The notes below the pieces were generated by a model that saw nothing but the letters and a program-made list of their open reading frames with translations, was not told the DNA's origin and did no database searches. From Marsupella aquatica (lineage: Eukaryota > Plantae > Marchantiophyta): a DNA stretch of 64,000 nucleotides. Positions 1-62,988 of the stretch are shown here, in pieces (position 1 is the first letter of the stretch; the number at the start of each line of letters is the position of its first letter). A program made the translations under genes and the position numbers. The DNA lies in contig OZ316894.1 of NCBI GenBank assembly GCA_973895155.1, positions 13,697,580-13,761,579 on the forward strand, given 5' to 3'.

Positions 1-540
1 TCTGGAATGTCATTTTGTACATAGTACGTTTATTTGGGAGTCACAGTTGGACCCTTCCCAAACTAGCGATATCGCTAGTATAGAACTGCCTCTACATTTC
101 AGATCAATCTTCGATGTGTTCATCTTAGATAATCAATTCGACAAAGTATTACTGCAACAACTTCAGGGATTACTTCCCTCCCAAGAACACATCCTATCAC
201 TCTATAGTAAACTTTATTGCATCCTAAATTCCGTTGATCAGACTAGCGATATCGCTAGCAAAAAACTGGCATCATTTTAATTAATGATCAAACCGTGAAC
301 TCTATACATACTTGTCGATAGGTTAACACGGCTGGAAGTTGGATGTTTCTGTCAGGATGTTGCAGACTTCCTAAGACGAGAGATTGCTAGCCATAAACAA
401 CAAACTCAAACACCATAAAGTTACCATTATGGACCTCGCTAACATTATGATTCACTCGGTGAAAACAGATTGATATTTGTGAAACCACAAACTCGAGTAA
501 TCCATCCCACCACCCTATAATTAGCATCTCCAATAAACGA

Positions 541-3500
541 CTAGTCCCCTATCTGTAACGGAATTAAACTCCTCACTTCCCCAATAGTCACAATCGGCTG
601 TTTGACAAGGTCGTCCTTCTCCAGGTTGAGTGAAAACTTGTTTAAATACACCCACAACAGATGTTTACAAGACATGTATGGTTTTCCTCGTGTATGCCTC
701 TTATAAAAGTCTTCACAAGAACACGAAGGGAAACAACAGATTTGCACCCAATATGTGTGCGGAACTTGTGAATCAGTCTCGTGAGTGGCGATCAAGTATC
801 TCCAACCCCATCCATTTCTGGCAATTACCTTCTCATTTCCGACAACTCTCATGTATTCTTGTGTAGCGGAAACGATGCGCTTGAGCAACTCTGGAGTATT
901 GCTGAAACGCTATCGTGCACCCTTACCATTTCGGGTTTTCAACCGACGGTCCACATTAGTTAGATCGATTCGTTCGGGGAATGAGTTAACATCAATTCGT
1001 AGGTTGACCCGATTGGGGGACAGGAACTCTCCAACTTGATTTGCTTCCACATAGGAGAGTCCACTGATCTAGAATCCTAATCCCAGCAGAAACTCTATCT
1101 CGGGATGGGAGAGGCAAGTCCCACACTGAACCTTGAGCGACTCGGGTGGGGGGGGTAGTTGAGCTATAGTTCTGTGTCCTTGGCTCTTGTGACACCTATT
1201 GTTAGGACAGAATTACAACAACTAGCGATGTGGAGACGATAATCGCAACCCGTGAATGGTGACTCCAACAATTCCCCCTTGCGCGGACTTACATCCAGTC
1301 TCCTTGATGAGATTTCTACATTCATCTCTTCCAAAAATGCTTCGGTCAACCGACCCGTTGCAAATAGGTCCAACACCGCTACCGCTCCGCCTGAGATGCC
1401 AGGTCCCATAAGGAACATCAACCTCTCGGATGGAAGGGATCCTTTGGGGGGCATCCCGATGGTCATCCCCGACATCACACAAAGGTTGAGTCCCCATCTT
1501 CTTGGTATCATTGACATTACGACTTGCATCATCACCATCGTCATCTGAAATATGGATAACTCCAGCGGAACAACCTCCGACAGGGGTTGCCAAAGTTGTA
1601 TTATTTGCTATTTCTGGGTCCGCATAAGTCTCCGAAACATTGATGAAGCAAAATTCAGGATAGAGATTATGCCTTTTTAGTCCTGAAGGAGAAGCTATTG
1701 TGCGTGACACCTTGTCATGTTTGTGGGAGTCATTCTTGTGGATTGTAGCTGAAGCTTTCCCTTTCCTCTTCGTGGATGTTGTTCGGAGATCACCATGTAA
1801 TGGAATTGTTCTATAGAATTCATACTTAGCTGAAGACTCAAGCAAAAGATTTGCTGCCTTTTCGTAAGCATCCATGGATCCCATAGCATCGGCGTTCCTA
1901 TATGCTAATTCAAAAATGGTCGGCCCCTGGCCTCTGTGAACATCTTCACTGTAGACAGTAAAAGCAGCAATTTGCCCCGCAGCACGATTCTGGTCCACCT
2001 CACATGCTTCAATCAATCCCACTAGTTTCTTCATTTGGCAGGATCTCATGGATGCATGGACTGATTCAGCTCTAGTACAATTTGGCATCAAGGCTGACTC
2101 CATTGCGGTTTGCGTCTGCAAAAAAGTAGTCCCCAGTCAGACCTAATATGCTAGCGAGGTCGCCAGCAAAAACAATGACGTCAAAGAGAAATGAAATTGG
2201 ACACTTACTACGCAGATGAAGTTCCCCCACTGCCTCCACCTCACGACCCACCAAGATAACCATCCTTGGAGAGACTTCAATTTCCCAGCATAGCAATTTC
2301 CTTCCTTCCACCAACGATGGATTTCGTCAGCAACACGGTAGGCCTGAACATATGTTGGTGCTGTTCTCAGCCTTTCCCACAGTTTATAGTGCTCTCGATG
2401 GCGATCTTCCCGAATACCCTCCAATGTGTGACGACAAAGAGATTGAGCAAAGTGAAAGGCGTCACTGTGCTCCTTCTGTGGGTGACGGACACCTCCAAAA
2501 AAACATTCCGAATAGCGATCCATCCAGCCTCGGCATTATCGGCAATAAATCCTCCAATGAGTGGGTCATGCATGTCATGATCAGAGGCAACTTCAATCAT
2601 ATATCTCCATGCGGTTTCAAGAGATAAGGAGTCCTCCGCACGGAGCTCACAAGTGAAGATGGTACAAAGGGACCTGTAATTATGGTCGTACACATGGGCG
2701 CTGAAAGTCAGCCACCCAATGCTTATTCTCCGCATTACATCAGAACTGACCCATGCTCCTTCCAACTCACCTCCACTCTTCATCTGCCTGAGAATATCGA
2801 CACCAGAAGTTGGGCCATTTGTACTCATTTTGAAGACATGAGTCCTATCGGTCTTGCTCCCCTGGCCAGGGAAAAGGTACCTCTAAATGTAAGGAAAATT
2901 ATTCCGGGCTTGCATCTCACGAAGAGAATCCAACTCACCTTTTTTTGGGTTATCCATTTTCACGCTCTGGAATATGGCCTGGAATTTCTCAACAGTGGAC
3001 ACAACCTTCATCGATTCCCATATCTCTCTCTCTTCTTCTTTTGATAGTTCTGAAGAAGACTCTAGATGCAAAAGAGAAACCAGGTTTCCTATAGACTTGT
3101 TAAGAACACGCCCTGGCGTACACACGGGATTTGCTTTATGAACACCAGAAACTATCTCCTCCGCCTGCTTTTTTGCCAATCAAGATTTCCCTTTCCAAAC
3201 AACGTGGTCATGGAAACCCATGTGAACAGCCAATCGAGACATATGTTTTGCAACATTTGACTCAAGAGACGGCTTAGGATAGACGTACAAAAGTTTAGCC
3301 GGACATTCATGGATGCAGAGAGGCCTCTCCTCACAGAATCCGCACACCAACCCTCCTTCCTCCACAAGCTCACCAAGATGAAACGGCTCAGTAAATTGTC
3401 CCTTTCCTCGAAAGGAAGAGTCATTTTTTGAACCGGTGTGCTTCAACTTTCTACAGACCAGATTTTGACATTCAAGTACACCAACACATCTGACGTTTGA

Positions 3501-4271
3501 CACAGACCAGTGATTGCAAGGTTTGAGATTAGCTGAAGTTGTGAGAAGTCTCGTCCATGGGTAGCCGTCATTATCCCTATCCATGTCCTGAAGACCATAT
3601 CCTCGACGAAATTGACCTTCGACCGGAGGAAGCTCAAAAATGCAGTTTCCGTTGTATGAAGTGGGCAAAGTTTGCACTTGAATCTCCTTCCAATCGTTTC
3701 CCCTGCGGAAATTTGCCAACTCGCTTGACCCAGTAATATTGAGGAAGGCATCATATGCACTAACTCGATAAAGAACTGGCTGAGATTGAAACTCATTTTG
3801 ACTCACTGCTTCAAAAACAGCTTTCTCAAAAGACTTTGTCGACACAGAAGAGAGATCCCGACCCACACTCTCAGGGGAGATGTCGATAATTTCAGGTACT
3901 GCAGGTGACGGGCGAGTCGGGGATTCTGGATTGAAAACATTGATATGTGCAATGTCATCCTTACATGAGACTAGCTCTACAGCTGAACCACACTTCAGGT
4001 CCCAAGCCCTCTCTGGCAATATTCCTGAACCATTATCCGACACCTCGTGACTTCTGGATCCATTCCGAGAGTAAAGAACGAACAACTTCCACATGAAATC
4101 ATCTTTCAAAAGCCCAAACCTCGATGAGAGAAAAGACTCCTTGATAGACATAATAGTATTCTCCGGAACATCCAGAACAACATCACCCGTCGTCTTTCTC
4201 TCGATCAAATCTTCGATCCCAATGAAGACATGCTGACAGTTTTGGACATTACAGTCTACAACAATCCTCAA
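541..4271 (-). pseudogene. Mutator-like (MULE) DDE transposase with N-terminal Cys/His-rich (WRKY/GCM-like) domain and C-terminal SWIM zinc finger; disrupted
   Basis: Joined ORFs 3180-4271, 2883-3179, 2367-2828, 2143-2523, 1222-2121 and 541-888 give FPGQG..VFKMS..GP.SGVD, WVSSD (D1), GFIADNAEAGW (D2), DAFHFAQSL (D/C-x2-H), RAESVHASM (E) and SWIM CSCEDF...CKH. In-frame GT-AG intron at 2116-2208. Stops at 3180, 2883, 1069 and 910; frameshift in the A7 run at 2497-2503. The start codon is uncertain. Confidence 0.85.
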
Positions 4272-6024
4272 ATGTGAGATACTTCGCTCTCTTCTTTCTC
4301 CAAATACATATGAGGAAACGTGCTTGTGTAGGCGTTGGACTCAACGTATTTGTTTAATAAATGCCTCTTATTCCCGTTATCTGACCGTTATTTTGTCTTA
4401 TATGACACTATTTACGGAATGATAAAGCTAGCAAGATAGCTAGCTCAATGAACCAAGTAAAATGGTTCAAAACCTTACAAAACACCCTTCACGAGTTCAT
4501 GGATTTAGTGATCAATTTTTGGCTAGCGATGTCGCTAGCAAAAATAGTTTCTCATAAGAGACCATTATGACCGTTTATATCCGTTGCAATTGGTCAATGG
4601 GTACCTATATGTCAACGGTACGGTACAATACCAGACACTTGTCTCTTTGTCATTAGATACTTTTCTTTCAATCGTGAGTTCGGTGGTTCGTATTTCCGGA
4701 AGTACATGTATACCTGACAGTGTCTGAAAAATGATTGCGAGGAGAGTCGTACAGAATATATGTATCTCTTTTCACGACCGGGCGCTGCATTCAGGTGAAA
4801 GCAACAGATGAGGGTACGATTTTGTCTTTGACTGGAAGATCGATTCTCGGGTTTCTTTACGTTCGCAAAGCGTGTCGCCCTCGACCTTGACTTGTTCATA
4901 CCCTTATCACTTCACGGACCCACTGATGGAGCCATTGTCTTCACCCGAGAGCTTGTCATCAATAGGATCATTCAAGTCAGTCGAGTCAAGCCGGAGGGAG
5001 ACAAGGTCTTCAGCGAACAAGGAGGCGCTCCAGGCGGGATTGAAAATACGGAGGAGGTCCAAGATGGTGAACCAAGTAGGTGTTGTGAATCCTACGTTTC
5101 AACCTGGAGCTTCAGAACCCTATTCTGTTGTCATGTCGTCGGCTTTGGCCTTAACTCGGGCTTTAGCTTAGACGGGCACATCCTTCGTAAATATGAGGGT
5201 TCGGGCAGGGAGGGAAGCACGTAATGCACCTAATTCATGTAAACTAGCGCTAAGTGCACCTACTGTTAGATACGGACACCTCCTAGGTATGGTTTGTGTT
5301 CCGCCGCCGGAACATACCTTAGTCGATAGCAGGATCGACCCCGGCTTAAGGGCTTCTAAGCCTTTATGTTGTCCGCCTTCAATCCGGATTTGATGATACA
5401 GGTCCTCAACCCGTGCTCGCAACCACTTACCCGCAAGCTGCACCTCGTGCACGATTCGGGTAGTGCGTTCGGCCCGGCGTTGTCACCTATACACAAGATT
5501 CACCCATACATATACACGCACAAGCATACAATCTCGATTTACACGAAGGAAATGGTGGGAAAGGATTTTACTACATAGGGGACATATGCGTACACTTGAT
5601 TGACCCGACAGCTCTGGAGTGAACAGGTCCAAGGCCGAGGGTGTACACTACAACGGAGCCCGGCTCCGCACTCGCCCAGCGAGCTTAGTCCTACCCCCTC
5701 CCCTTGGTACTCTTCCACTCCCAGAGGTCGGGACTCCTTGCACATACCGCGGATGTCCAATTTGAGACTAGAAAAACCCCCCTGCCTCTACCGAGGGGTG
5801 CACTAAATACTAAGGGCTGAGGAACGGGGTGGCCTCCTGTCCGAAGATTCGCTGACTTAGGTCCTAACTAAGCTGATTGTCAGGCCAAAAAACGACTGTG
5901 TCTTATTAGAAGATCCTAATCTATGTAGGCTGGACAGCATGGCAGTGCTGCTGTAACTAAGGCAGGTGCCTGTCCCAATAGCCTGACTTAGTATTCCTAA
6001 CCCTATTCTATTCCTACTCCGCCG

Positions 6025-8229
6025 CTAATGCCTGGCACGCTTGCCAGAGCCGCTTGAGTGGGAGCGGCCATCCCGCTGCTTACAAAGTCTGTCGTTGTTC
6101 GCCTGGAGGAGCTGGACCTGGTCCAGCAGAGATTTGTTCTCTTGCTTCGCCGCGTCTGTCTCCTCCACTGCCTCCTGGCATGCCTCCTCCAGCTGCTGGG
6201 CATCGCTCGTCAACTTGCCCGCCAGCTGGTCCTGCTTCTCGGCTTCGGTTTGGAGCCGTGCCACTTTGGCCTGTAGCGTGGCTATCTCTGCAGTGTCCCG
6301 CTGGGCCCGTTTTTCGGCCTCCTCCAGGTCTTTCTGCCAGATGACAGTTTGATTCTTCAAACTGTCAATCTGGTTCCGGAGTCGTGCAATCTTGGCCTCG
6401 TTCCCAGCTTTGGCCTATTCAGCTAGGGCGGTAAGGGCGTGCGCCTTTGCTAACAACTCATCGGCGGCTGCAACTTTGGGTCGTAGTTGCAGAAGCTCAG
6501 CCTCTTGAGCCGCAACTTCGTTCTTTAAGTATACGGACTCCACCCGATACCGCTCTATCCTCTGAAGGGCCTCTGACTGGGCCCGACCTACCTTTACTAC
6601 GGCAACCAACTCCTGATTGAAGAAACAAGCTACCTTCTGGGCCATGAACTCCCCGGTATCCCGGGCAATTTGATGAGAGAAATCTCCCAGAAACCCGTTC
6701 AGAAATGTACCCGATATGAAGAGTTCCGGGTGGTCCAGGTTGTGCCTGTCTGGAGTTGGGCACGGGCAGACGTCAACACGCGCGGGGGCCGGGGCAGTGA
6801 CATCCAGCCCTAGGGACGTAGTGTTGGAAGGTGTTGGAGTGTCCTCCTGCAGCAATGTCCGGTTCTCCGGAATAGCCACTGGTGGGTCTTTGGGAGACCC
6901 GGGCTCGAGTAAGGCCTCCGCTGTACCAACTTCTGTACTTGGCCCGGCCTGTTGGATCGCATCTACGGTTGCGATAACTGACCCATCCGGTACCTCCTCG
7001 GTTACGACTACAGCTACTTGTGGAGGTGGGGTGGGTGAAGCCTGCGTGTCCGCTGGACTTCGGGCCTCGGGTTGGGGCCGTCTCTCCAAGGCCGGAAAAA
7101 CCCACCTAGCTGGGACCAGCTTTGTAACGTTGACACGGGGAAGGGTTCGTCGATCAAACCGAGCGTACCACTCGAGAATGATCTCGATGTGGCTAGCGAA
7201 ATACGCCTTCCCGCCAATGTATAGTGTCTTTCTTTGCCGCTCCATCTCTTCATGGAATTTCTTAGTAAAGTATGACGCCCACTTCCTAGGTCGATAGTTC
7301 TCGACCTGGATAACCTGGGCAGCGGAGATCTCACCCCGGGGTTCCATCATGTGGAGGGCGTACCTTTGGAACTCCAATCGCTCAGCTATCTCGGGGATGA
7401 GGCAAGTCCTCATCACGAACCCGTTGTCCACTGCTCCCTCTGAGGGAAAACTCGAGGATTGGTACTTGGCTCCCTTGCCCTCGGGAGCCCGTGATTCGAC
7501 TCGATGGTCACCTTCGGGTAACCCGAAGATCATCTTGAGCCGTTCTTCCGTGAGGGACATATTCCTTCCCCGCAGCCGAGTATGTTGACGTGCGTCATCA
7601 TAATTCTTGATGAATTCCGTCATGTCCTCCCCATAGTACCTGCAAGTGTTTCAGGGGAGAGATGCGAGGTGCTCGAATCCCTGAGTCTTCAGGTACACCG
7701 CATGCTTGGGATGGAGGATGTTTTTATGCACATTTTCCCCCATGCGATGCATTGTCACCTTGGCCACGGCTACCGTGGCCAATGGTAACCCGGATGCAGC
7801 AGCGGGTTCCTTCCTCTTCTTCCCCCGTGACTGGCTCGGGGAGGGTGACACCTCCCCATCCTCTCGATCGGGCATAGGTAGTGCTACTGCCGTTAGTATT
7901 GGGCCCGGGGCGGCCACGGTCACCGTGTTGTCTGTTGGAGCCGCTCCTTGGGTCCGAGCATTGGGAGGGGACGATGTAGTGTCGGCCCCCTGAGTGTTTG
8001 CTCCTTTGGGCCGCCTGAGCAAGGGTGGGGTAGCCTCGTCGTCGTCGCTAAGGTCCACAGCGTTGATGACGGAGCATACTTGTACTGGCGGGGCGATCGG
8101 CGGTGGGGGTTGGCTAGGCTGAGGCTGAGATTGAGACTGAAGCTGAGCCTGAGCCTGAGTCTGCGTTGGTGCGGGTACGGGTATGGGGTCGACTGGGCCG
8201 GCGCCGGCGGTTGAGGGTCTAGTTCCCAT
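6025..8229 (-). pseudogene. ORF2 of the solo-LTR-like element (about 734 codons: P/Q-rich N-terminus, retrotransposon accessory-ORF-like domain, C-terminal coiled coil)
   Basis: ORFs 7651-8229, 6415-7623 and 6025-6360 share one frame and are separated only by single stops. LRGRNMSLTEERLKMIFGLP resembles plant Ty3/gypsy extra-ORF domains. A homologue lies at 37300-38720. Confidence 0.7.
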
Positions 8230-8235
8230 GAAGCT

Positions 8236-8673
8236 CTACAGGTGCTGGTAGAAGTTCTCCGAAGCAAGTGCAGACGACCTTGTCGAACGGGTAGTGCTAG
8301 ACTCGCTGTTGATGATAGCCCGAACCTGAGCAGGGATGTGGTCAAAGTGATGTCGTTGCAAGTCGATCGTACCCGGGATATTGAAGACCTCATCCGAAAG
8401 CCAAAGCAATGCTTCCCAGAAACCGATATATTTGTCTCCGTTGAAGAAGTACCTAGATACCTCTGCTGGTCGGTAAAGCTCGCTCTGAGACGGGTAGTCA
8501 AAGTTAAGGATATAGTGGTGTCGTCCTGCTAGGCGGATGGCTCTCTCATACTTGCGCTCGATTTCGTATCGGCGCGGGTTGGCATGTTTCAATGAGTCGG
8601 CCAAGTGTCTTCTGGTAGATAGGAACTGCGTCCAGAATCGAATGGCCGAACTGGAGAGGATTGTGTGCGACAT
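8236..8673 (-). CDS. ORF1 of the solo-LTR-like element, unknown function (145 aa)
   Basis: Intact ATG ORF about 90 bp downstream of a TATAAAA box; a diverged homologue at 35418-35813 shares the F-x3-G-x3-L-x4-F-x2-IP pattern. Confidence 0.55.
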   Translation of the reverse strand: MSHTILSSSAIRFWTQFLSTRRHLADSLKHANPRRYEIERKYERAIRLAGRHHYILNFDYPSQSELYRPAEVSRYFFNGDKYIGFWEALLWLSDEVFNIPGTIDLQRHHFDHIPAQVRAIINSESSTTRSTRSSALASENFYQHL

Positions 8674-8762
8674 TCAGAGGAGATAGCAGTGGCGACTAAG
8701 AGCGAACGAGAGAGCTGGGCGCGTGGACTGATGGACTGGTGCACTACAAAGGGTCGGCTCCC

Positions 8763-8770
8763 TTTTTATA
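8763..8770 (-). promoter_or_regulatory. Candidate TATA box for ORF1/ORF2
   Basis: Minus-strand GTATAAAAAGG about 90 bp upstream of the ORF1 ATG. Confidence 0.45.
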
Positions 8771-11700
8771 CCTTGAGGGCTTGTCGATCCCCTGACGTCT
8801 CCTGGTTGCCTATAGGCTGAACCGTTCACGCTTGTAGTGTATCGGCCACTCCGCCGGTCTGAGTCAGCGTGTGTCAGTGGTTGCTTCCCTAAGTTCGTTA
8901 TACGGACCCGAGGGAGGGGCCCCTCCACGCTCGCAACCCGGGCGTGTGAATGGCGACACGCTGCCAGTCCGAACATGAATTCCCCTTATTGACTAATGAT
9001 TTCCTACTCATAATGGTTACCTAAATACTGTCGTTATGCTAATTATAGCGGCCTAAGATACCCCTAACGTGCATGCTAAGCGCGGTCCAGACTGAATTAC
9101 TCATTATTCACCGTACCGACGGCGTCACATCTGTTGTCATCAATCGCCATCTTTTCCCCTTTGGAAATGACAAATTTGGATTCCCCCTCGCTCCTCCGAG
9201 GATTCCCCTTTGTAGAATGCAAAACATGCAGATCGTTCGGTCCTTGCAAACAAACTCGACTGCGATCGAGACACTCAAGAATGAATTCCGGACGCAGGGA
9301 TACATCGAGGATGCGCCTCGATTTTACGTCCAAATGACCGGCGAAGATGGCGTTGTCCAGATGTGCGAGGATGTGATTTGGGAGTCGTGGGATGACATGT
9401 GGATTCTTCAGAATGAAGAATTCGAGAGGGAATGTGATTCTCACGAGGCTTTCAAAATTTTGAAAGACAAAATGTTCTGTGTTTTTGATGGAAATCATCG
9501 TCTGTACTCATGGATGCAGCTTGCGGACGAGAATCCCCATGATGTCAAATATCATCCTTGAGTTGTTTGCCGAATTTTCAAGGGTGACAAGAACTCATTC
9601 ATTCAGATTGAGTCGGCGATGCATGCGCTGAATAGGTTTGTTTCTTTTCCTTCAAGCAGTGAATTGTAAATAAAATTCTTTCAGTTCCTCTTGTTAGCGA
9701 TCTCGCTGACCTGTTTCTTTTGTTCAGGTTGACTCAATGTCACGTTGAGAATTCTTGGGTCCTTGAAGCAGAGAGAGTCCAGAAGGTGCTCAATAATGAC
9801 CTTTCTGTATACAAAGATATCATCGATGCAGACAACTACAAACTTTTCCAGCAGAAGATGGCAAATATCAGGAAACCGGCTTGGTATTCGAAGAACATGA
9901 CACTCGATGCCTGCACGTACATTATGTCTGTTGCTAATATTGCAACGCAGACGGAAGATTTGAAAAAGAAGTTCCAGTTGAAAGAAGTGCAAGGAGAACC
10001 TCTTTCAAAAGCTGCGCAAGACATGGCTATGAAAGACATGATGAAGGAGCAACTAGCAGATTGGAATGTGAAGGTGCTAAAGATTGGACCTCTCCTGAAT
10101 CCTGAGTTTGGTGACTTTTTCCAGAAGTGTGTTGAGATGCACAACTACTGCGAACATGAGAGGAAGGAGGCCCAATGAACAGACGATAAAGGAAGGGGTA
10201 ATGTGTCATGTGGTCTCGATCGTGCAAGGCTATTTATGGGTGTCTCGTCGTTGACTCCGCAGCTCAGATGTGTACTCCTCGAGGCACAATGCAGACCTGA
10301 GCTTCGCAAGAAGTACTTTCACCCTGGTCAATTCTCGGACAGCGAAACAAAACTTTGGCTTCACCGATGGGCTGTATGGGAGCAGGTTGAGTCAATTTGT
10401 TCTTCGCTCATGTTTGAGATTATTTCAGAGTTGATCCCAAGTGTTCCAGATGCAAGGATCCTTACTTCGTCTGAGAAGACAAAGCCATCGCTGATCCTTG
10501 ACATAGAGGAGGACTTTGAAGATTTCCAAACGAGAGTGAAATCTCATTTTTTCAAACACATTTGGCCACCAAAGTCGGGTGAGAAGATTGACATCTCACT
10601 TTTTCGGAGGAGGGCAAAGAGATATACGTACATATCGTTTTTTTGTGGATAGAGAAGTTGCTGAAAAAACATATTGGTGGTCCTATCCTGCTTGCTTCTC
10701 GCCTTGGATAGCAGGAGTGAAAGAGGATCCAACCTCCGTTAAATATGGAGAGTACTCGATGTACCCATGTGAGGGAGTGGAGGCTCCAAGGAAGATGAGT
10801 GAGTGGGAAGTCCTTCACTGTCCATGGTATTTAGAATCAGACAAATGGGCAGTGACATTTGACACAGTAGAGAAGGCAGCATTTCATATGATAAATCAAG
10901 ACTTGATACCAAAGTCATACATTACAGAGTCCAAATTAGCCCCTGCAGAAGCCGAGGCTGGCGGATGCGAGGCAATGGAGAAAGCTGTTCTTGGTGTAGC
11001 TGCCATTGTCGACTAGAGTAGATCGAGGAGACCTCGGAAGGTGCCGGTGAAGGATACGTCCAAAGATGGATCAGTCTTGTCTGGGAAGCAAAGTAAGTCT
11101 TTTTCTCCTCTTTTTTTCATACCTCATTCGGAGTAATTTTGTCTCAGTCACCTGTCTGACATTAACATGTTTTTCAGAGAAGAGAAAGGTTGCAGCCTCT
11201 GGGAGTTTGAAGAGTGGGGCGGATGATGGGGAAGAACCCAAGTCTCCTGATGTTGAGGTCACAACAAAATCTGCTGTGGACCTGGGTTCAATCCAGCATT
11301 TAAAGAGGAAGCGCAATGTCCAAATTCTCTCCGACTTGGATGAGGAGGAAGCATGCGTCGCTCAAGGAGTAGCACGAATGTGTGGTCTTAAGAAGGACGG
11401 TGAGAGGCATTTCTTGGCAAAGAGCAATCTCATGGAAACTGCAAACTCAATTAGCCAGAGGAAAGTAAGACCTCCCTGGATGGGCGATGCGGATCAGTGG
11501 TTGTCTGGAATGACCAAATCGAGCGAACACCCAAACGCCGTGATGATCAACGGAAAACATTACGCTGGAATTGGTGCTCACTTGGGTTTCATATTCCTTC
11601 CCATGGGTCATCGAACGAGCGTCACAGACCGGGAGGTCCCGAAGTGGAATGTTTGGAGTGAGAAATTACCATATTATTTCTTTGGAGTCATGCGTCCGAT

Positions 11701-14700
11701 GCTTGCCGACGATGGTTATGTCGCAGTTCTTCATAGCTCTGACTATAACCATATGAGGCAAATTTTTTCTGCCGTCGAGCAAAAGAATAAATTTAAACAT
11801 GTCCGGCAGTATTCGGTTTTGCTTTCATCTCCTTTGTATCAGGCAGATATGGACATCGAGGTAAGATATCCTCAATATTTGTTGTGCAATTTTTGCTAGC
11901 GAGCTCGCTAACCAAAAGTGCCCATTTCTTACATATTCTCGTTTTCAATTCAGGTGGTTACTCTCATTATGGATGTCTTCTGCAAGGTGGAATTCTCGGC
12001 AAAAGTCCCGAAACATACAGGATATGTTCCAATGACTTCCTCGGAGGATGCCCGCCATAAATCAATGTTGAGTGTTTGCTACCCAAAAACTGATCCCAAT
12101 CCCAAGGCGGCTTTCGCAGGTTCCAATAGATTGTCAGTTGGGTTCATGCAAGCCGTAATGGAGATCCTTACTTTGCCAAAGGACATTGTCATTGATTGGA
12201 CTGTTGGAGATGGAAGTTCTTTTGCCGCTGGGGAATACGCTGGGAGATTTGTTGTGGGTGTTGAAGACCGAGACATTCTTCATCTGTGTGCGCAAAAAAC
12301 TTTGGCAAATGTGTTGGATAGACATGCCCAGAAGTTGAAAGGGGCCGCAGACCCGAAGAACGATGATCCCAATGATGAAGGGTCGGATGATGAGTTCACC
12401 ATCCCAGGAGATGATCAGGGAGGACCTTCAGACGAGAAGGATGAATTCAACCTGGAGTAAAGCACTTGGCCTTTGATGTAGAACTCCCTATTTGGTGTTT
12501 TTCTTTTGTTTGTAGAATTTTTGGATGTGTAGTATTGATCCGATTCTGGTGATTTCTTCAGTGATAGGCGTTCGGATTGGTTTTCGGAGGAGAGATTCCG
12601 ACTTTGGAAAGAAATCGAGGATCATTTTCTTGTGACCCTTGAGAAGGGATTTGCGCTTCCATGCTATGCTGAAAAGACTGCAAAGGAGGTTGATGAAGCG
12701 CCCGTTGTTTTGACTTGGGAGGGGAAAGGTCTGCGGTCAGTGAGGGGTGCTCGAAAAGCCCTTTACTGCCCTCAGTTCATAGATGATGAGGCTGGGACTG
12801 TAGCACAGTATGTTGACGATTCCGCTGAGGAGACTGATAGGGAGTCGAGTAGTGATCCTAGTAATTCCTCAGATGATTTGGAATCAGAGGATTCTCAATG
12901 ACTCATGGTCAATTTCAGATGCAATCTCATTCCAGAAGATATTTGTCATACCAAAGTTTTATTAAAGATGGATTGTGAAATGTTTTTTGACTTGGTTTTG
13001 TTCATAATGATGATGCCTTTTCATTCAGTTCAGTGTAGTGAAGATCTCGATTTTTGCGTTTGTGAATATTTAAGTATCTGCATTTTTGTTTTCTGTAACT
13101 GTTTCACAATATATATCGATAATCTTACTTGGGAATCCGCCTAACTACCCTGAAGTTACGCACAAACTTGCCTCGCTAGCCTGCTGTCCTCGCTAGCAAA
13201 ACTCCTGTTTGCTCGCACAATAGAATACCTCTGGAGACCTCCACAACTCAAGTCTATCAGGTCAAGGTCTTCAAGCATAGGCAGTGGCATCCTAATTTGC
13301 CAGGCAACTGCACAAGGAGATGGAGCACCAGAGCACAAGGTTGGCTCTATAATGGAGGAAAGTTATACTTTTCCTCCACCTTGATATCATTCTTGAATGG
13401 TACCACTGGCTACACCAGGAGGAAGTCCCTCCGATATAATTGGCCCCTCTTGTCTAGGCATCATGGATGTTCCCGAGGCTCGGCCCTCCATAGCTGCACA
13501 AAGGGGTTTGTAGTATCCGCCAGCCAACCATTTCCAACTATAGAGTCGGTCCCTGTGCAGCCCGACCTAATACTAGTAAGCCTGATGCAGGCCTTGGCCA
13601 TGCAGAATCACGCTTTTGCTGCCACCTTACAGACCTGGTGCAGTAGATTGATACCTCCTTCTTGGCCTGTTCTCTGTCCACTCACCTTTTTCTTTTCCCA
13701 ACCTTTTACATCCTTCTTCCATACTACCAGCGTGGATATCTGTGCAACACAAACACATTGAACCTCACATTTTGTATTGACGATATTAGGGCGTCTCAAA
13801 GTTGACAATTGATGGACCATTACTCCCTTGTTACGGGTTATGGACATGAAAAGTTACAGACTATGAAATTCATAGTCCGTAACTATTTGCCATACAGATT
13901 GGTTGCCCTTATCATCAGTCACTCTAGAGGCTGCAGACATAAAAAACAACAAAAACATTTACAAAACCTTGTGAAAAAGTTATGACCATTCCTTTATGGT
14001 CGAATGCCATCATCTATAATTTTGAAGCTTTGAGACGCCCTATTATGTAAATGACACACAAGGGCTGTCAGAACTCCTTTCTGCTTGCAATAGCAACATT
14101 TTTGTAACATAAACAATTTCAGCAATGACAATACTTTTGCTCGATAACACTTCCATGCGCGACAACATTTCCACTTGAATAGCTCTTTTTAGCTTGACAG
14201 CTGTCTTCTTGATTACACTCTTTACAGTATTTAGTCTCACACAACTCTATTCAGTGTCAGGTTATATTTTGGGTGGGTAATTGTAATTAGTGTTTGTGAC
14301 TAATATGGCATAGTGTCACTTGTACAAAATAGTGTTATATGAAAATTCAAGGGCTACCCCTAATTAGTGTGTGTGACACTAATTGTTTACTAAATACTGT
14401 AAAGAGTGTACTCAGTGCATTGCATAGGTATTGGGCTAGTCATATCAATTAGGATAGGATTGAAAGAGAGAACCATAACTAGAATATGGCAATCTTGAAA
14501 CCGGGACAAGACTTGTAAGAACACTCCCTCTGGTCCACCCAACAGACCAGCCAGGATGCCTTCGCATTTTGGAGCAGAAAGTGGGCCCCCACCAGCCTCC
14601 GCTATTGGTAAATGTATCTGCCAACCCCACATTTTTTGAGCCTGGCACGCGGGAGTTCCGGAGTTGCCTGCCATTCCTGTGCAACCACTCCGATCCATTC

Positions 14701-36482: not shown

Positions 36483-39400
36483 TGTCACACCACGCAAACC
36501 AAATTGTAAGGGGCCACAGGCCGTGGGCTGTGGGTGCGGGTGCCTCCCCACCAAAACTCTCTTCACTCAAGTTATGGGCTAAACACGCCGCGAGTAATGG
36601 AAAAAACACTATTCACTATTTATCATTTCCTCTATGCCCTGAGTCATAGCCACACCTTGCCTCTTTGTGGTGCCTTATCTTGTTGCGTGCTGACAACACA
36701 ATTCACCAACATTCAACGTCATTTCCTTCATAGAAACACACTATTCATCAACAAAGAACTTGATGCAAATCAAAACTGCATCCTTCAAAAATTGTAAACA
36801 CAATCAACTATTGGGCTCCCAATCGCACCGCCTCAATCAAAACTACAAAGAGTTGCACATCCGACTACTTTCCCTTCACAAAATAGGATCAGACACCACT
36901 GTCTGTCTAGCACAAAGTTGTCAACAACATCTGCTTGTCCCACGTGGACATTCTAAAGGACCCGTCCCACGTGGACTATCTAAAGGAGCATCAATTAGAT
37001 AAATTTTCTCAGTTAACCTGGAGGCCTACCACCTTTGGGGCAAGGAGATGCATGAGTTCATCTCAAACTTTGATATATTGACACACCTGTCACCAAGGTG
37101 TCGGGACAAACTTTGTCCCCCCTGGGCCCTCACTCCGAGTAAAAGAAGTAAACCCCCTTGTGATTGGGACCCCTTCCCTCTTACCCCTTGTTATTTTTAT
37201 TTTTCTATAAAAAGCTCCCTTGTTACCGATAATAATTATAATTACTAGTTTCAATAAAACCCACCCTTTGAGTGTTCACACGTCCTCCCATATTAGTTAA
37301 CATTGAGGGCCCAGGGTTTGTCCCTCATGGAGTACCGGTTGGCCCAAGTCTTTTGTCTACCAACAGGACCTGTGCTAGTCAAACTCCGGATCAGGGATAA
37401 GGAGTATGTCCCTCGATACTTCAAACAGGTACAAGCAAGGTTTGTGTACCAATCTGGTTTGTATGGAGTGACTAAGCTTCATCCAAACCACCATGCACAT
37501 GATCAAACCTTGATCTGAGATCTCCCTTTGCACAATTATGTAGGTGGAGCAATGCAAGAGGCAAATTTGGGCCTAGTTCTTTAGCCACCGGTTTTTAGGG
37601 GAGCTTAAGTGGGCTAAGACAGGCCTATACATTGGCGGGAAAACCTATCTTGGAAGTCACATTGCGATCATCCTAGATTGGTACAAGCAACGTCGCAAGG
37701 TCAGGGGGAAGAAGTCTACAATCCCGGTCTTGACCGACACCGGCCCTACCCCCAGTAGTAGCACGTCAAGCACCCCAACCACCGCAACTCGGGTAAACCT
37801 TGCCCCCACTCCGTCACAATCTACTCCCCTACCTACTCCATTTGGGACCATTGTGAACAATGGGCCACCGCTACCTCCTCTTGTTGTAGAGCCCCCACTA
37901 CCTCCATTGCAACCACCATCAATTCCATCACCCCTTGTGGATCCCATCCTTCTCCTGTGCGGACTATGGAGGAAGCCATAGCCCCAACCATGGAAGGACC
38001 CTTGCCAAAGACCGTGGAGAAGTACCAAGTGGTACCCGATACCTTAGCCCACAATCAGGTCCAAAAGTTTAGTCAAGACCTTTCAATGGAGCTAGTAGAG
38101 TATATCGCCCTCCAAGTCTCTAACTACTTCCAATCGGCTTTCTTCACGTTGGATCACCACCTGCGGCTTATGGCCCTCTTACAAGACAAACTCATGGCCA
38201 AAGGGAATGAGATCGGGGCCCTCAAAATGACCATGGAGTGCCTAGAGTCTGAAGCCACCGCGCACCGAGGGGATTTAGTCTAAGAGGGTTAAGAGCGGGA
38301 CAACTAAAACAAGAACTACTTAAGGTTCAAACGGACCTTAAGGAGCAAAAGGCTGCCATAGCTTGGCTTGAGGAGTCTGCGACTTGGGTTAAGAGCCTGG
38401 CTGACCTAAACAACCAGTTTGTGCAGGTTGCTTAGCAAGTGAATACCGTCACTGCCAATTGAGATAAGTGGTTGGGGCAGCATCAAGCCAACCTCAAAAT
38501 GATTGATAACCTCAACTTGGGGATGGTGCACCTGCAAACTAAGGTGAACAAAGTCTCCAACAAGGCAGAGGAGGCAACTCAAGATAACCAAGCCTTGTAG
38601 GCTCGGGTTACTCTGTTGGTGAGCCAACAGAATGGGGCGGGAAATGCCTTTGACCAAGGGGGCTTGAGGTTTTGGCCTGACAAAGGAACAAGCCCAGGGC
38701 AGCAGCGTAGTGTAGTATTACACTAGGAACATAAATTAACATTTAAGATCCAAAACACAATATTCGTTCCCATGGAAGAACAAGTAAGGATGATTTTCTA
38801 TTGTTTAGCACTTTTGAATAAGTAAGATAACAAAAACACAGGTTTGAGCCTTTTACTATGATTGCTCAACAAAGCATAGTTTTGAATGTTTACTTAACAT
38901 TGTAAACAAAATGGAAATAACTATCAACAAAAGACAATGAAAATCAAGCACCCAAACACTCCGATAAATAACCCCAAAAAGATCTAGATCTCCCCCAAGT
39001 CTAGCATCCTAACTCAAGCTCAACAGACATTGGTAAGTAGGTTAGCAATAGGTCCTCCTGTTGCCATAAGTCAGAATCAAAACCGACACCCACTATTCGT
39101 CCAGAACAACCCCTCTGGGTTCCCCCTCGTACCTATCCATCACCAACTGACCGCTCTGCCCCCAAGACATGTTCATGGCCCAAATAGTTTGTCCCAACAC
39201 GTTGAGACTAGAATAGTCCCGACTCTAACCCAACTTCGGGTTCTCACCCCACTGATGGCCTAGGGGCCAAATGTACTTGGAACTCAACCTCCATGCCTAC
39301 TTGACCTTGACTCCCCAACGCAAGCTCTCTTGGAAGACTAAACACGGCTTGGCTGCTGTTTTGGTAGGATTTGGCAAGTGGGCAAGATAGCCCCCACAAA

Positions 39401-40214: not shown

Positions 40215-42135
40215 GACTAAGGTGGAGGCCATTACATAGATTCCTTGTCCTACTGATGTGAGTAAAGTTCGTGCATTCTTGGGATTGACAAGCTATTATA
40301 TAGACGCTATGTTAAAGGATTTAGCCAGCTTGCTAAGCCTTAACCATACTATGTTGGACCAGGAGTGGATTTGGGGTGACGACCAAGAGCATGCTTTCCA
40401 AGAGTTGGAGGAAAGATTGGCGTTGACACCTATTTTGAGAAGACCTATTTTGGGATGACCAGTTCAACTACACACTGATTGGAGTGGGGTAGGACTTGGA
40501 GCAGTGCTCACTCAAAAGGATGATGAGGGGAATGAGTTTGTTGAGGTGTATGTCAATAAATCAAACAATTTAGTAGAGGCTAAGTATAGCTCTTATGAGT
40601 GAGAGTGTCTGGCAGCAGTGTGGGTTGTGGCACACTTCCGTTGCTATTTGTTTGGTAATCCGTTCACATTGATCACTGATCATCAGCCTCTTAAGTGGTT
40701 AATGGAGTCTAACAAACTTAGAGGGAGCTTGCACAATGAGCATTGTTGTTACAAGATTATGATTTTTAGGTTGTGCATAGGCCTAAAAAAGTGAACTTGG
40801 ATGCGGATGGGTTGAGCCACAATCCATGTATCAGTCAAGAGGATGAGATTGGAGCGCAACGGCATGATGAGTCACATAAGGAGAGTGTGCCAGGATAACA
40901 TGCATATGCCTTTCTTGTTGGGTTCCAACATGTAGTATATCTGTGCACTCTACTTTATTGGATGGGGTAGATGTTAAGTCTTCAAATATGGATGTTGATG
41001 ACTCGGTAGTTTTTGGACAACAAGATATTCACAATATATGATGAGAGAGTGTTGGAATATTTGCGTGGTGGCTCCATTGTTGGCAATTGTGATGCTAAGG
41101 AGCAAGATAGGGTTCTACAACGAGTCAAGAGGTTTTGATGGGAAGGAAACCATCTTTTGAGGATACTATGTGATGGTAAGGTGTTGGTTGTACCAAAACC
41201 ATCACAACAAGTACGCACAAGAGTTGAGTCACTTTGGTGTGAAGCGCATATATAGCTTGCTGTAGACACAATATTGGTGGCGTGGTATGCACACTGATGT
41301 CCAACAATTGATAACTAAGTGTATGGTATGTGATCAAGTGAGAGCATCGTTTAATGCTACACTTTGCAATTGCATCCGTTACCAATAATGGGGTTTGGGA
41401 TATCAATGGAGTTTGGACTTTGCTGGTCCATTGCCTCTTACCCCAGGTCATAATCAATTTGTTTTGGTTATGGTACAATAGATCCAAGCTTGGCTCATGT
41501 TCATGCCGGCTTGAAGTGTATGTTGTGTGGATCTGCTCAAGGAGCAGCCACTATGTTAATTTGTGATAAGCGTTTAAATTAGAGGATGACGCATGTTGTG
41601 TTTGACATCACCATTGGAGGTGATTCCTAGTGGATCATGGTTGTGTCCTCAATGTCGGTGAACCGACTAGTTATCATTTGTGTTCTCATATATGGAAGAT
41701 ATAGATTGCAGGAAGGTAATCGATGGGGCTCACTTGCACCCGGCCTCTTGATCTCCACACTTATAAATGGTGTATATCAACCTTGTAGAACTTATGGCTA
41801 GCTAGAGTTAAGGGACCTCACTCCCAGCTAGGGGGAAAATTGTGGGTTCAGGACATGTGTGGAGAGGAGTTCCACTTGTACTCCATTCTCTTATGTTTGT
41901 GATGTTGGATTGTGACTATGCTTAAGTAGATGTGTGTGACAAGGGTTGTATATTGTGTTGCAATGTGTATGATCACGACAACTGTCACACCATTATGAGT
42001 GATAGTATAGGATATCGGACTATGTAGGTTTGAGGCTTTCATATGTGTGTTATCTAAGTGTTTTAGGGTTAGTGTATGTTTGTGAGGGATAGTTATCCTT
42101 CTTTATTGACTCCAAGGTCTCATCTTTTGATGTGG
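40215..42135 (+). mobile_element. Degenerate Ty3/gypsy retrotransposon 3' part (RT end, RNase H, deleted integrase, PHD finger, PPT, 3' LTR start)
   Basis: VRAFLGLTSYY, LHTDWSGVGLGAVLTQKDD, LITDHQPLKWL, ADGLS and WSLDFAGPLP; PHD C..CG...MLICD...WLCPQC at about 41515-41657; PPT AGGGGGAAAA followed by TGTGGG at 41841. Confidence 0.9.
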
Positions 42136-60489: not shown

Positions 60490-62988
60490 TGTCAATTTGG
60501 GTTGTCGTGCGCATACACATCTCTACGCAACATATATCGCATGTCACACAAATACAAACATAAGGGAATGGGCTGCAAGTGGAACTCATATCCACACATG
60601 TCCGAAACCACAATAATCTCAACACAACCAAACCACGATCGACGCCAATCAAACGTCTGATCCCATCTGGAACGATCACATACAGATATCGAGCTAAACT
60701 TACCTCACACTCTGAGGAATCCACCTTACATACACACAAAACTGGCTAGCTACACCATAGCCTCCAGAGCTCATGCTCAAAGGCTCTACATTGAAGAAGT
60801 GAGGCCCTTGAGTCACAACAAAGGGATACTATCCCTCACAAACGTGAACTGAACCCTATCGGCTCATATAACACACATACAAAATATATAAATCTAGACA
60901 ACACGATATACTCTAATGCTACCTAGAATGCTGTGATAGTTGTCGTGCGCACACACATCGCTACACAACATACATCGCATATCACACATATACAAACATG
61001 AGTACAGACAAACATAAGGGAATAGGTTGCAAGTGGAACTCATGTCCACACATATCCAAAACCCACAATCGCCCACCTAGTTGGGAGTAAGGTCCCCTAA
61101 CTCAGAGCTAGGCATGAGTTCTACAAGGTGGATATACACCTTTTTAGGTGTGAAGATCAGGAGGCCTGGTGCAAGTGAGCCCAATCGATCACCTATCTGC
61201 AATCCATATCTTCCAAGAGAACACAAATGATAACTAGGCGGCTTTATCGACATTGAGGACACAACCATGATCCACTAGGAATCACTTGCAATGGTGGTGT
61301 CAACATGACATGTGTCATCCTCTAAAACACTTATCACAAATCAACATAGTAGCTGCTCCACACAACATACACTTCAAGCCAGCAAGAACATGTGCCAAGC
61401 TTGGATCTACTATACCATCAATGTTTGGAAGATGACATGGTGCACAATTGCGCACATGATCCTTCCAAACCATACCATCATTCCCTCCAACGTTAGGACA
61501 CCAGAAGGCAGCTTCACGCACACGTAAAATGGTCCAACCTACGGTCATATCAAGTGTAGTTGGTGCTATCAGCTACAAATAAACGTAATCACCATGATGA
61601 AATCGTCAAATCCTGGCACGATAACCTCCTCCACAAATAGTGGCATACGGTCCAAAATGACTGAGTACACGATCCAAATGACTGAGTACACGATCCAAAA
61701 GTGTGGCAACAACTCCTCCACTAGCTTTATCTAGCAACGCCACTAGCTCAATCCACTTGGAGAAGTGCTCCACCATGACCAAAACATACCTATTATGTCG
61801 TTGGGTAAGAGATAATGGACCAGCAAAGTCCAAACTCCATCTATACCCCAAACCCATGATCGGCAATGGATGCAATTGGGGAGTGGGAGCATTGAAGGAT
61901 GCTCTCACTCGATCACATACCACACACTTAGCTATCAATTACTAGACATGCGTGTGCATACCACGCCACCAATATTGTGTTTGTAGCAAGCTATAAGTGC
62001 GCTTCACACCAAAGTGACCCAACTTCTTGTGCGCATGTTGCACCAAATGTATTCATGAATTGTGATGGTTTTGGTACCACCAATACCTTATCATCACACA
62101 CTACCCTCAAAAGATGGTTTCCTTCCCATCAAAACCTCTTGGCTCTTTGCAAAACCCTGTCACGCTCCTTGGCATCAAGACTGCCATCGATAGAACCACT
62201 GCAAAAGGTATTCCAAGACTCTCTCATCGTTGTGAATATCTTGCTGTCCAACAACAATCTCACCAACATCCATATTTGCAAACTCATCATGTACTCCATC
62301 CAATGAGGTAGCGTCCACAGATTCACTACTGGCACCCAACAAAGGAAGGCGGATGCATGTCATCCTGGCACCATCTCCTTATCTGACTCATCATGCCATT
62401 TGGCTCCATTCTCATCCTCTTGACTGGTACATGGATTGCGGCTCAATCCATCTGCACCCAAGTTTACCTTTCCAGGCCTATGCACAACCTGGAAATCATA
62501 CTCTTGTAACAACAATGTCCATCGCGCAAGCTTCCCTATAAGTTTGTCAAACTTCATTAACCACTTGAGAGGTTGATGATCAGTGATCAAGGTGAAGGGA
62601 TTACCAAACAAGTAGCAGCGAAAGTATGCCATAGCCCACACTGCTGCCAAACACTCTCCCTCATAAGAGCTATACTTAGCCTCGGCTAAATTGTTTGATC
62701 TATTGGCATAAGACACAACAAACTCATTCCCCTCATCATCCTTCTGAGTCAACACTACTCCAAGTCCTACTCCATCAATTGCTATCAGTGTGTAGCTAAA
62801 ATGGTCTCATTGAAATGGGTCTTCTCAAAATAGGGGATGATGCCAATCTTTCTTTCAACTCTTGAAAGTCATGCTCCTGGTCATCACCCCAAATCCACTC
62901 ATGATCCAACTTAGTGAGTATGGTTAAAGGTTTAGCAAGTTGGCTAAATCCTTTAACGTACCTCCTGTAGTAGCTTGCCAATCCGAGG
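60490..62988 (-). mobile_element. Second degenerate PHD-finger Ty3/gypsy copy (RT end, RNase H, partial integrase, PHD, 3' LTR pieces)
   Basis: GLASYYRRYVKGFSQLAKPL, YSSYEGECLAAVWA, LITDHQPLKWL, CVVCDR..WSLDFAGPL...VEHFSKW and KCMLCGAATMLICDKC...WLCPQC. The LTR start TGTGGG at 61067 is homologous to 41841, with a second LTR start at about 60612. Confidence 0.9.

Follow-up and report, generated by a model that had tools for sequence, protein, structure and literature searches.

The 64-kb window (the whole stretch of DNA analysed) contains a probable Mutator-like element in which a 16-18-bp palindrome is confined to non-coding DNA, recurs in a shared intron of copies both close and distant, and differs symmetrically from one family to another. 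The explanation we favour, with a probability of about one half, is that it serves as a conserved cis-element specific to the family, likely the double-stranded site on which an element-encoded dimer loads, most likely the ParB-like/methyltransferase-like protein of the cargo gene. The presence of the word in introns and between genes, together with a symmetric variant in the same intron of a relative, suggests that one of the element's own proteins lands there.

Distribution of the palindrome

Eight sites match the relaxed consensus RYTAGCGA-NN-TCGCTARY with at most two mismatches in the whole 64-kb window, the consensus having been derived from the same copies on which it was then scored (Table 1). 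With the 18-mer CTAGCGANNTCGCTAG, the same threshold gives six matches in 64 kb (63, 243, 2151, 4428, 4523, and 11896), against a mean of 0.07 and a maximum of 1 in shuffled sequences, which confirms the recurrence first noticed in the sequence-only reading. All six copies listed there are present, with positions shifted by 0-1 base, but only three are exact (63, 243, and 4523). Those at 2151 and 11896 carry one mismatch, and the copy at 9693, with three mismatches to the 18-mer, is outside its six matches. The site at 4427 and the degenerate copy at 426 are additions to that list. A half-site proposed at 1221 was not upheld: the DNA around it is probably coding, and its 8-mer recurs at 7192 in the nested insertion and at 22775 and 33266 in host DNA, which makes it no better than chance.

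All eight full sites lie within the 1.7 kb of non-coding DNA of the element, as had been claimed. With the relaxed consensus, none is observed in the 7.5 kb of element coding DNA (at most two mismatches), in the nested 4-kb LTR-like insertion, or in the 51 kb of flanking host DNA. As the non-coding part represents only 18% of the element, the probability of this confinement is ~1e-6. Exact half-sites number 17 in the window, 13 of which fall in the same 1.7 kb; their density per kb is 7.6 in element non-coding DNA, 0.13 in coding DNA, 0.25 in the nested insertion, and 0.04 in host DNA.

The palindrome is present in three of the four introns of the element and between its two genes, while cargo intron 2 (11093-11177) has no copy. 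The location inside introns of both genes is borne out by GT..AG borders at 2208-2116, 9636-9727, and 11861-11953. Intronless homologues read straight across two of these three introns (P0009; P0013 and P0021), and homologous ORF calls end or begin at the third (P0001, P0063). The palindrome at 62..79 is possibly within an intron of a third gene. In other copies, a 2-bp insertion after 377 and a C at 385 would, in our reading of the variant tables, restore a near-palindrome at 375..392. The inner arm pair is a symmetric A..T in all eight window sites, which are dispersed, with unrelated flanks, and do not form dense same-orientation tandem arrays.

Fold-back repair, or a tiny mobile or intron-generating element, could also have left the palindromes as footprints that have no function for the element hosting them. 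The three motif-bearing introns are all 92-93 bp long, and one site of the distant relative L001 (see below) is inside a 60-bp perfect palindrome. Nevertheless, repeat searches show that the sites share no sequence beyond about 22-30 bp, host DNA and the nested insertion are free of them, and the word outlasts the intron sequence around it. We give this origin only a very slight chance.

Table 1 Features of the element in the window
Feature	Position	Strand	Basis and remarks
Perfect palindrome ACTAGCGA-TA-TCGCTAGT	62..79		Exact motif match; past transposase gene 3' end
Palindrome ACTAGCGA-TA-TCGCTAGC	242..259		Exact motif match; spacer base 251 and flank base 260 variable among copies
Decayed palindrome copy	375..392		Variant tables of other copies
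Degenerate palindrome	426..443		Right arm TCGCTAAC intact; relaxed consensus
Mutator-like transposase pseudogene	541..4345	-	Broken by stops and frameshifts; start codon position provisional
Transposase intron, 93 bp, GTAAGT..TTTTTTGCAG	2116..2208	-	Homologue comparison
Palindrome in transposase intron	2150..2167		1 mismatch, at 2164
Degenerate palindrome, divergent intergenic region	4427..4444		Motif match
Perfect palindrome GCTAGCGA-TG-TCGCTAGC	4522..4539		T-tract and A-tract flanks; between two divergent genes
Cargo pseudogene	4812..12460	+	ORFs, homologue comparison
Cargo exons (about)	4812-5128 plus 9135-9635, 9728-11092, 11178-11860, 11954-12460	+	
Nested TG..CA insertion	5129..9129		5-bp target duplication TCTGT; in cargo exon 1; without full palindrome
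Variant palindrome GTTAGCGA-TC-TCGCTGAC	9693..9710		Cargo intron 1; 1 mismatch to relaxed consensus
Palindrome GCTAGCGA-GC-TCGCTAAC	11895..11912		Cargo intron 3; 1 mismatch
Two direct-repeat half-sites CCTCGCTAGC	13171..13197		17 bp apart; ~35-60 bp inside right end
Inferred right end of element	13203..13233		Near 13231 (..ATAGAATACCTC)

The element and its transposase

The element is multi-copy and likely a Mutator-like transposon, probably from a liverwort; the window holds a decayed copy of it. Thousands of contigs with 80-100% identity were obtained in all four runs. The left end is outside the window, since bases 1-21 still have a depth of 10-20x the single-copy level. At the right end, single-copy contigs without differences start at 13203-13205 in the four runs. 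The empty site of the nested insertion is joined in run X3 (5134 to 9152). The hallmarks of MULEs are a target site duplication of 8-11 bp and either TIRs or non-TIR ends; a search of 1-13000 gave no terminal inverted repeat partner, and the window shows no target duplication of the element. Pfam assigned no family to any element ORF in the window, and no VANC-like domain, oxygenase, or SET was detected. The window's part of the element contains no ParA-like gene. Assignment to the PAG cassette of Plavaka elements was rejected, the transposase being Mutator-like by motif and oxygenase and SET matches being absent.

The transposase appears to have a D..D..CxxH-like..E core, a C-terminal SWIM-like finger (CxC..CKH, within 544-909), and a Cys/His-rich N-terminus that appears GCM-like by eye. 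FDVMHR, ADNA, DxFH, and a later E are conserved across nine aligned sequences and by eye fit what we take to be the MULE pattern (D..D..CxxH..E). The protein has no Pfam MULE match and no PDB match, and Pfam SWIM was found in one homologue only (P0009, E 2.5). L001 has its intron donor at the identical position, which also coincides with the points where the P0002-P0007 ORFs end.

The half-sites previously noticed near 13172 and 13189 are real and form a 10-bp direct repeat (13173, 13190). Half-sites near the element end would suit the transposase, which counts against the cargo protein as binder. The transposase could indeed bind the word through its N-terminal zinc domain, using the end half-sites for synapsis and the internal palindromes for self-regulation. 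The two half-sites 35-60 bp inside the inferred right end, the absence of a TIR partner in 1-13000, and L001, whose transposase-only sequence presents motif and transposase together with the cargo gene not in evidence, are consistent with this. Moreover, the AtMu1c transposase binds its cognate ends, leading to hypomethylation and activation, but, in the available part of that report, its binding peaks at TIRs and not in introns (10.64898/2026.08.24.746577). The full palindromes are distant from the end and inside introns of the cargo gene, and a ParB-like gene with inverted repeats is also described on Plavaka, with another transposase (10.1101/2025.02.11.637652), both of which argue against the transposase. 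We consider it an unlikely reader; if it were the reader, transposase self-regulation would extend to intronic sites.

The cargo protein

The cargo protein comprises, in order, a low-complexity N-terminus, a ParB-like domain (about 9139-9635), a helical middle part, and a methyltransferase-like C-terminus. The ParB-like domain carries DGNHR, a GxxR-type motif (GNHR). Its look-alikes in the language-model Atlas are DUF3723 (0.92), ParB_N (0.91; 11% of members), and DUF6551 (0.90), and eight of its ten best family matches belong to one family or clan. This motif and these look-alikes hint at a ParB-like N-terminal part. Pfam and PDB searches and folding returned nothing for this assignment, two AlphaFold models being unusable (pLDDT 39 and 52), and Atlas gave nothing firm for the helical middle part. 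ENxxR is absent as such from the cargo protein, in which no DNA-reading domain, including helix-turn-helix (HTH), was detected (Pfam blank; low-confidence models). In BisD and canonical ParB, the site is read by the HTH and not by the ParB_N domain (PMC12409273); its absence among the detected domains counts against the cargo protein as binder.

With regard to the C-terminus, cargo homologues match PF01555 at E 3e-5, which is below the curated cut-off, and phrog_67 at E 8e-9, and DpnA and CcrM are matched in the region of motif I, with E from 1e-4 to 1e-3. On these matches, the cargo domain is classified as beta-class N4/N6-methyltransferase-like, with a permuted fold in which motif IV precedes motif I. 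The catalytic motif IV of this class is (D/N/S)PP(Y/F/W). The window cargo reads FIFLPM at this position, with no DPPY, and DPP is missing in five of the six aligned sequences covering motif IV, P0058 alone having it (IDPPT). Catalysis has probably been lost, and the lack of catalytic motif IV makes 4mC or 6mA marking of the sites unlikely.

The element is not depleted in CHG (ratio 0.93, interval 0.84-1.01); four other repeat stretches of the window are (0.42-0.58). This compositional hint of shielding is weak because the nested insertion is also undepleted (1.02) and L001 is partly depleted (0.68). Among the best-supported positions with T/A in place of a family C/G, 24 of 28 are in a CG or CHG context, compared with 32% of cytosines, which indicates that the window copy of the element was methylated. 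Past methylation of this copy counts against a shielding role.

Conservation in close and distant copies

Only the copy in the window carries the mismatch at 2164: T, which restores the palindrome, is found in all depth of the four runs (depth peaks over the motif may stem in part from contigs of other places where the word occurs). In positions 1-620, none of the 40 listed differences (the best 40 of 97) falls in the 32 arm positions, and positions 61, 251 (spacer), and 260 vary among copies (arm sparing P ~0.04). One X1 record departs from the window's transposase intron at 2125, continues with 27 unrelated letters, and then matches the palindrome at 243. It is probably the record that differs by about 19% in its exons and whose intron does not align.

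L001 was chosen by its transposase protein alone (66% in the best segment). The intron equivalent to the window's transposase intron contains three palindromes, GCTAGCGC-NN-GCGCTAGC, with the same length and spacer as the window sites and a symmetrically changed inner arm pair, C..G in all three versus A..T in the window. None of 300 simulations produced any site. The word marks one multi-copy element, as proposed in the sequence-only reading, and neither of the refuting outcomes named there was observed: in the window it is absent outside the element, and copies near and far retain it at the corresponding intron position. It persists as the remaining intron sequence turns over. In L001, the symmetry of the palindromes continues for another 6, 21, and 4 bases; such extensions exceed a protein's need and count against a dimer site.

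A dimeric host transcription factor, borrowed by the element for its expression, might read the word, as two sites are in the shared intergenic region, where position and dyad form are suitable. However, no site occurs near host genes within 51 kb, and the concerted symmetric change between families points to an element-encoded reader, although this argument is weakened as the host of L001 may differ. A host factor is thus highly improbable.

Alternatively, the word could act as a structure, either a pre-mRNA hairpin helping the splicing of short introns or a DNA cruciform. Stems of 7-8 bp are predicted in the three motif-bearing window introns (z -1.7 to -2.7; 0.0 in the motif-free intron), and stems of 13 and at least 20 bp in L001 (z -4.4 and -10.9). 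Three of the four intronic arm mismatches would be G-U pairs in RNA, and the right arm of the 9693 palindrome, in intron 1, contains what we take to be a CTRAY-type branch-point word. Nevertheless, a structure would allow the arms to drift, whereas within each family their sequence is fixed. Symmetry of the inner arm pair holds in 11 of 11 sites, although these two bases stay unpaired in each of the five RNA folds that contain the motif. Copies also lie between divergent genes, the half-sites at the right end, being direct repeats, cannot pair with each other, distances to donor and acceptor vary between introns, intron 2 has no site, and Rfam gave no match in 1-14000. A structural role is improbable. 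The fixed arms, free spacer, loop-pair symmetry, and tandem end half-sites favour a double-stranded dimer site; the earlier proposal of a binding site for a dimeric protein is strengthened in this respect, while the identity of the binder stays that of a candidate.

Proposed function and implications

If the cargo protein loads on the palindrome, a dimer would read the two 8-bp arms across the free 2-bp spacer, aided by the T/A-tract flanks. Their placement in introns and intergenic DNA would reflect the inability of coding sequence to accommodate such sites, which, with the insertion removed, would cover the element at spacings of 2-3 kb or less. The loaded protein might spread like ParB-fold clamps and could perhaps maintain transcription of its own family or protect that family from host methylation, in the way VANC acts on VANDAL. 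With catalysis probably lost, the methyltransferase-like domain may serve as a DNA-, cofactor-, or partner-binding module.

According to one study, no transposon family other than VANDAL is known to bind its own sequence and modify it (10.1101/2025.02.11.637652). The function proposed here, if true, would represent a second, prokaryote-derived route to transposon self-recognition and silencing resistance, and possibly a family of sequence-specific chromatin tools. As the element supplies a defined 18-bp site, a natural pair of variant sites, and a candidate reader, and as the lineage has a laboratory model in Marchantia, the idea is directly testable.

Comparison with known systems

The following comparisons refer to the available portions of the cited sources; the closest precedents are PAG3 of red-algal Plavaka elements, with its inverted-repeat arrays, and VANDAL/VANC. 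The element shares with VANDAL21/VANC21 of Arabidopsis a probable Mutator-like nature, the presence of accessory genes, TIRs that are apparently weak or missing, and a motif that is specific to the family, sits in non-coding DNA, introns included, and differs between families (PMC5735166, PMC10398659, PMC6446971). VANC motifs, YAGTATTAY and AGTTGTCC, are non-palindromic, dense, in the same orientation, and spread by tandem repeats (PMC5735166, PMC10398659, PMC6446971). In contrast, the sites described here are dispersed palindromes, the part of the element within the window shows no VANC-like domain, and anti-silencing is suggested by analogy. The VANC analogy drawn earlier holds for a likeness of function, but not for the motifs, which are of 8-9 bp and tandem in one orientation in VANC (PMC5735166).

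The palindrome, a 16-18-bp dyad in several copies, resembles the 15-23-bp palindromic loading sites of ParB/parS, BisD/bisS, and KorB on mobile elements, where a GxxR-type protein acts at a distance on genes of its own element (PMC12409273). However, these systems are bacterial and combine GxxR, ENxxR, and HTH, whereas the cargo protein exhibits GxxR (GNHR) only. The sequence is unrelated to parS (TGTTCCACGTGGAACN), and the window's part of the element has no ParA-like gene.

MpDN4MT1 of Marchantia is also a liverwort gene related to prokaryotic amino-methyltransferases, but it encodes an active host enzyme of sperm (10.1101/2021.02.12.428880). The cargo domain, compared by description only, belongs to a transposon gene, where it is joined to a ParB-like domain and lacks DPPY. 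DUF3723, the best named Atlas look-alike of the N-terminal domain, is a conserved accessory gene of fungal Starships, which are giant eukaryotic transposons with a tyrosine recombinase; no palindromes are mentioned in the available part of that source (10.1101/2021.12.13.472469), and the likeness to the cargo is a look-alike score, not an alignment.

It is possible, although we consider it doubtful, that several eukaryotic DNA-transposon superfamilies took up a bacterial ParB/parS-type device. Here, a ParB-fold clamp joined to a dead methylase would load at the family-specific palindromes in introns, spread over the element of a land plant, and protect it from host silencing, its site and reader diverging together, as suggested by the symmetric A..T to C..G change. 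The giant Plavaka transposons (EnSpm/CACTA) of Bostrychia carry PAG2 and PAG3, with a ParB-like accessory domain, N6_N4_Mtase (PF01555), and inverted repeats for which binding by the ParB-like protein was proposed there, without a test; homologues are stated to occur on Chondrus Mutator elements (10.1101/2025.02.11.637652). Plavaka is red-algal and has a CACTA-type transposase, whereas the element here is likely from a land plant and its transposase is Mutator-like by motif; the methylase-like part here has lost the catalytic motif. Plavaka has two separate genes, one joining ParB to a 2OG oxygenase and the other joining the methylase to SET, with repeats in tandem arrays beside PAG3; here, a single gene holds both parts, and the sites are scattered among introns. 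Like Plavaka, nevertheless, the element of the window pairs a ParB-like part and a methylase-like part with palindromic repeats.

The palindrome in the non-coding DNA of the element

The sequence-only reading had claimed that a palindrome recurs across the element, and this observation is confirmed and extended. When up to two mismatches are allowed, its pattern exhibits six matches in the 64-kb window (63, 243, 2151, 4428, 4523, and 11896) against 0.07 expected; the copy at 9693 is a variant of that pattern, GTTAGCGA-TC-TCGCTGAC. A relaxed consensus, RYTAGCGA-NN-TCGCTARY, derived from the same copies that it scores and applied at a threshold of at most two mismatches, gives eight sites in the window (62, 242, 426, 2150, 4427, 4522, 9693, and 11895). 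As had been noticed, full copies are confined to the non-coding DNA of the element (1702 of its 9225 bases), which holds all eight sites, with none in the nested insertion or in host DNA. Exact half-sites are found 13 times in non-coding element DNA, once in coding DNA (1221), once in the nested insertion, and twice in 51 kb of host DNA. As such strays occur in the insertion and in the host, the half-site claimed at 1221 was rejected as chance background, whereas the two half-sites near the right end (13173 and 13190) stand above background.

Extent, copies, and genes of the element

Contigs of four public runs that contain the stretch were aligned to the window. Thousands of contigs cover 1-13200 at 80-100% identity in all four runs. 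As low-depth contigs without differences begin at 13203-13205, we infer from the 31-letter graph that the right end lies near 13231. Depth over bases 1-21 is still 10-20 times that of the low-depth contigs; the left end therefore lies outside the window. Depth is multi-copy on both sides of 62-92, and the idea that this stretch marks the end of another element was therefore abandoned. At position 222, a single record, one contig of run X2, joins plant-type telomere repeats.

Judged by eye, the motifs of the minus-strand gene are consistent with a DDE transposase of the Mutator type that carries a SWIM-like finger, and its N-terminus was labelled, also by eye, as what we take to be GCM-like. 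Pfam gave no support for the transposase type, and a PDB sequence search with the transposase had no match. Among 10 proteins looked up, the three with names belong to Calypogeia fissa and Riccia sorocarpa, both liverworts, which makes it likely that the host is a liverwort too.

Features of the element and of the neighbouring DNA
Feature	Position	Strand	Remarks
Transposase gene	about 4345-541	minus	eight protein relatives in the search; broken in the copy studied
Cargo gene	begins upstream of the nested insertion	plus	broken in the copy studied
Nested insertion	5129-9129		4.0 kb; TG..CA ends; 5-bp duplication (TCTGT); no internal LTR pair, solo-LTR-like; empty site joined in one run; contig depth above that of the host element; relative at 37625-37684
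ORFs of the nested insertion	8673 to 6028	antisense	about 2.6 kb; terminal coiled coil
Motif-bearing introns	2116-2208, 9636-9727, 11861-11953		93, 92, and 93 bp; the motif-free intron is 85 bp
Possible exon	103-206	plus	AG..GT, open frame, between the 62 and 242 palindromes; may be part of a third element gene converging on the transposase
Open frame	12539-12901		120 codons, 3' of the cargo stop; contigs at multi-copy depth; may be another exon or gene; without a match in Pfam
Inverted-repeat pairs	13783-14046, 14210-14414		arms of 34 and 26 bp, 196 and 153 bp apart; miniature-element-like
Retrotransposon fragments	40299-42100, 60821-62969	opposite orientation	diverged copies (RT RNase H); strongly CG- and CHG-depleted

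Conservation of the palindrome

The motif had been expected at equivalent positions in other copies, and it is found there: position 2164 is T at all contig depth in all four runs, which makes the intron site perfect, and the distant transposase-bearing metagenome locus L001 also carries intron sites. One record departs from the intron of the window at 2125 and reaches the palindrome 27 letters on; its depth probably identifies it as the record whose exons differ by about 19% and whose intron cannot be aligned. Across 1-620, 40 of 97 differences are listed, and none of these falls in the 32 arm positions of sites 62 and 242, whereas variation is seen at base 251 of the spacer and at the flanking bases 61 and 260. 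This absence has a P of 0.04 under a uniform model, for a list that names two positions twice and a depth that may include contigs of other sites. The variant tables point to one more site (about 375-392), decayed in this copy. An Rfam scan gave no match.

The evolutionary comparison depends on a single distant locus, as L001 is the only one confirmed among 95 candidates of a motif-blind metagenome scan with transposase peptides; the same alignment confirmed none of 66 viral-contig and none of 15 prokaryote-genome candidates. The L001 intron starts at the same codon as that of the window and is 317 bp long. It exhibits three TATT-GCTAGCGC-NN-GCGCTAGC-AATA sites, one of them with one mismatch, and no site of this kind arose in 300 first-order simulations. 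Site length and spacer are the same as in the window, and the inner pair is altered on both arms. L001 is the strongest of the conservation tests. One of its motif copies lies at the centre of a palindrome that is perfect over about 60 bp (1172-1231 of the locus), with 21 symmetric bases outside each arm, suggesting fold-back copying.

Candidate readers of the palindrome

The word could act as a structure, either an RNA hairpin or a DNA cruciform, and small stems do appear in the folds of the motif-bearing introns, those of L001 being longer, up to the 60-bp palindrome. Nevertheless, the arm sequence is constant within each family, and each of the 11 sites has a symmetric inner pair, although in all five motif-bearing folds this pair falls within the four-base loop. 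As, moreover, the two central bases are free and half-sites also occur as direct repeats, a dyad read on double-stranded DNA is favoured, and a structural role is less probable. The sites have no long flanks in common, which speaks against a mobile intron or a miniature element.

We consider it probable (about 0.7) that a protein encoded by the element reads the palindrome. The transposase is one putative reader: half-sites lie near the right end, and the AtMu1c transposase is reported to bind its cognate ends and to activate them (10.64898/2026.08.24.746577). This is countered by the red-algal Plavaka elements, which are reported to pair a ParB-like gene and inverted-repeat arrays with a different transposase (10.1101/2025.02.11.637652). 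Likewise, ParB-like proteins, BisD among them, are described as controlling their own element from palindromic sites (PMC12409273). We give even odds to the cargo protein as the reader. A site-reading domain was sought in it with Pfam, Atlas, and low-confidence AlphaFold models and none was found, and L001 is too short to reveal a cargo gene.

The N-terminal domain of the cargo protein exhibits DGNHR and ParB/DUF3723-type look-alikes. With this ParB piece, none of 134 metagenome candidates was confirmed, tblastn of phage and plasmid sequences gave no match, and the PDB sequence search gave chance matches only. None of the element ORFs matched a relevant Pfam family, and a fold search with a low-confidence AlphaFold model, built from an alignment of two to three sequences, gave no match at E 0.001, a result that carries no weight on the fold. 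Atlas matches of the middle domain (helical-bundle, low recognition) were rejected.

The C-terminal domain matches beta-class amino-methyltransferases, in a family of 52 matches that includes several spurious repeat proteins. Its motif IV is FIFLPM in the window, and DPP is missing in five of the six sequences that cover it. As the catalytic motif is lost, active methylation of the palindromes by the cargo protein seems unlikely. The arm contains GCTAGC/CTAG, which we take to be targets of known restriction-modification enzymes; this lead was put aside because the cargo domain lacks the catalytic motif. A relative of the methylase-like domain in Riccia sorocarpa, P0058, has retained IDPPT at motif IV and is possibly active; its matches to phage DNA methylases are weak.

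Function and comparison with known systems

An anti-silencing purpose of the word is plausible. The CHG ratio of the element is 0.93, against 0.42-0.58 in four other repeat stretches of the window, and such retention of CHG sites would be consistent with a lineage that had evaded methylation. However, the nested insertion is not CHG-depleted either, L001 is partly depleted, and 24 of the 28 listed losses particular to the copy studied lie at CG or CHG, so that these ratios argue only weakly for anti-silencing. A ParB-type anti-silencing clamp is possible but less likely than not.

No account of the element family or of its motif was found in the literature searched, chiefly the main texts of open-access papers and preprints. 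The methylases of chlorophytes and chytrids that are fused to ParB-HTH belong to another methylase group (PMC4738411), and passages of PMC6431247 concern enlarged Chondrus En/Spm elements only. Compared with VANDAL/VANC and with the proposed PAG3 system, the element would work alike, but it belongs to neither.
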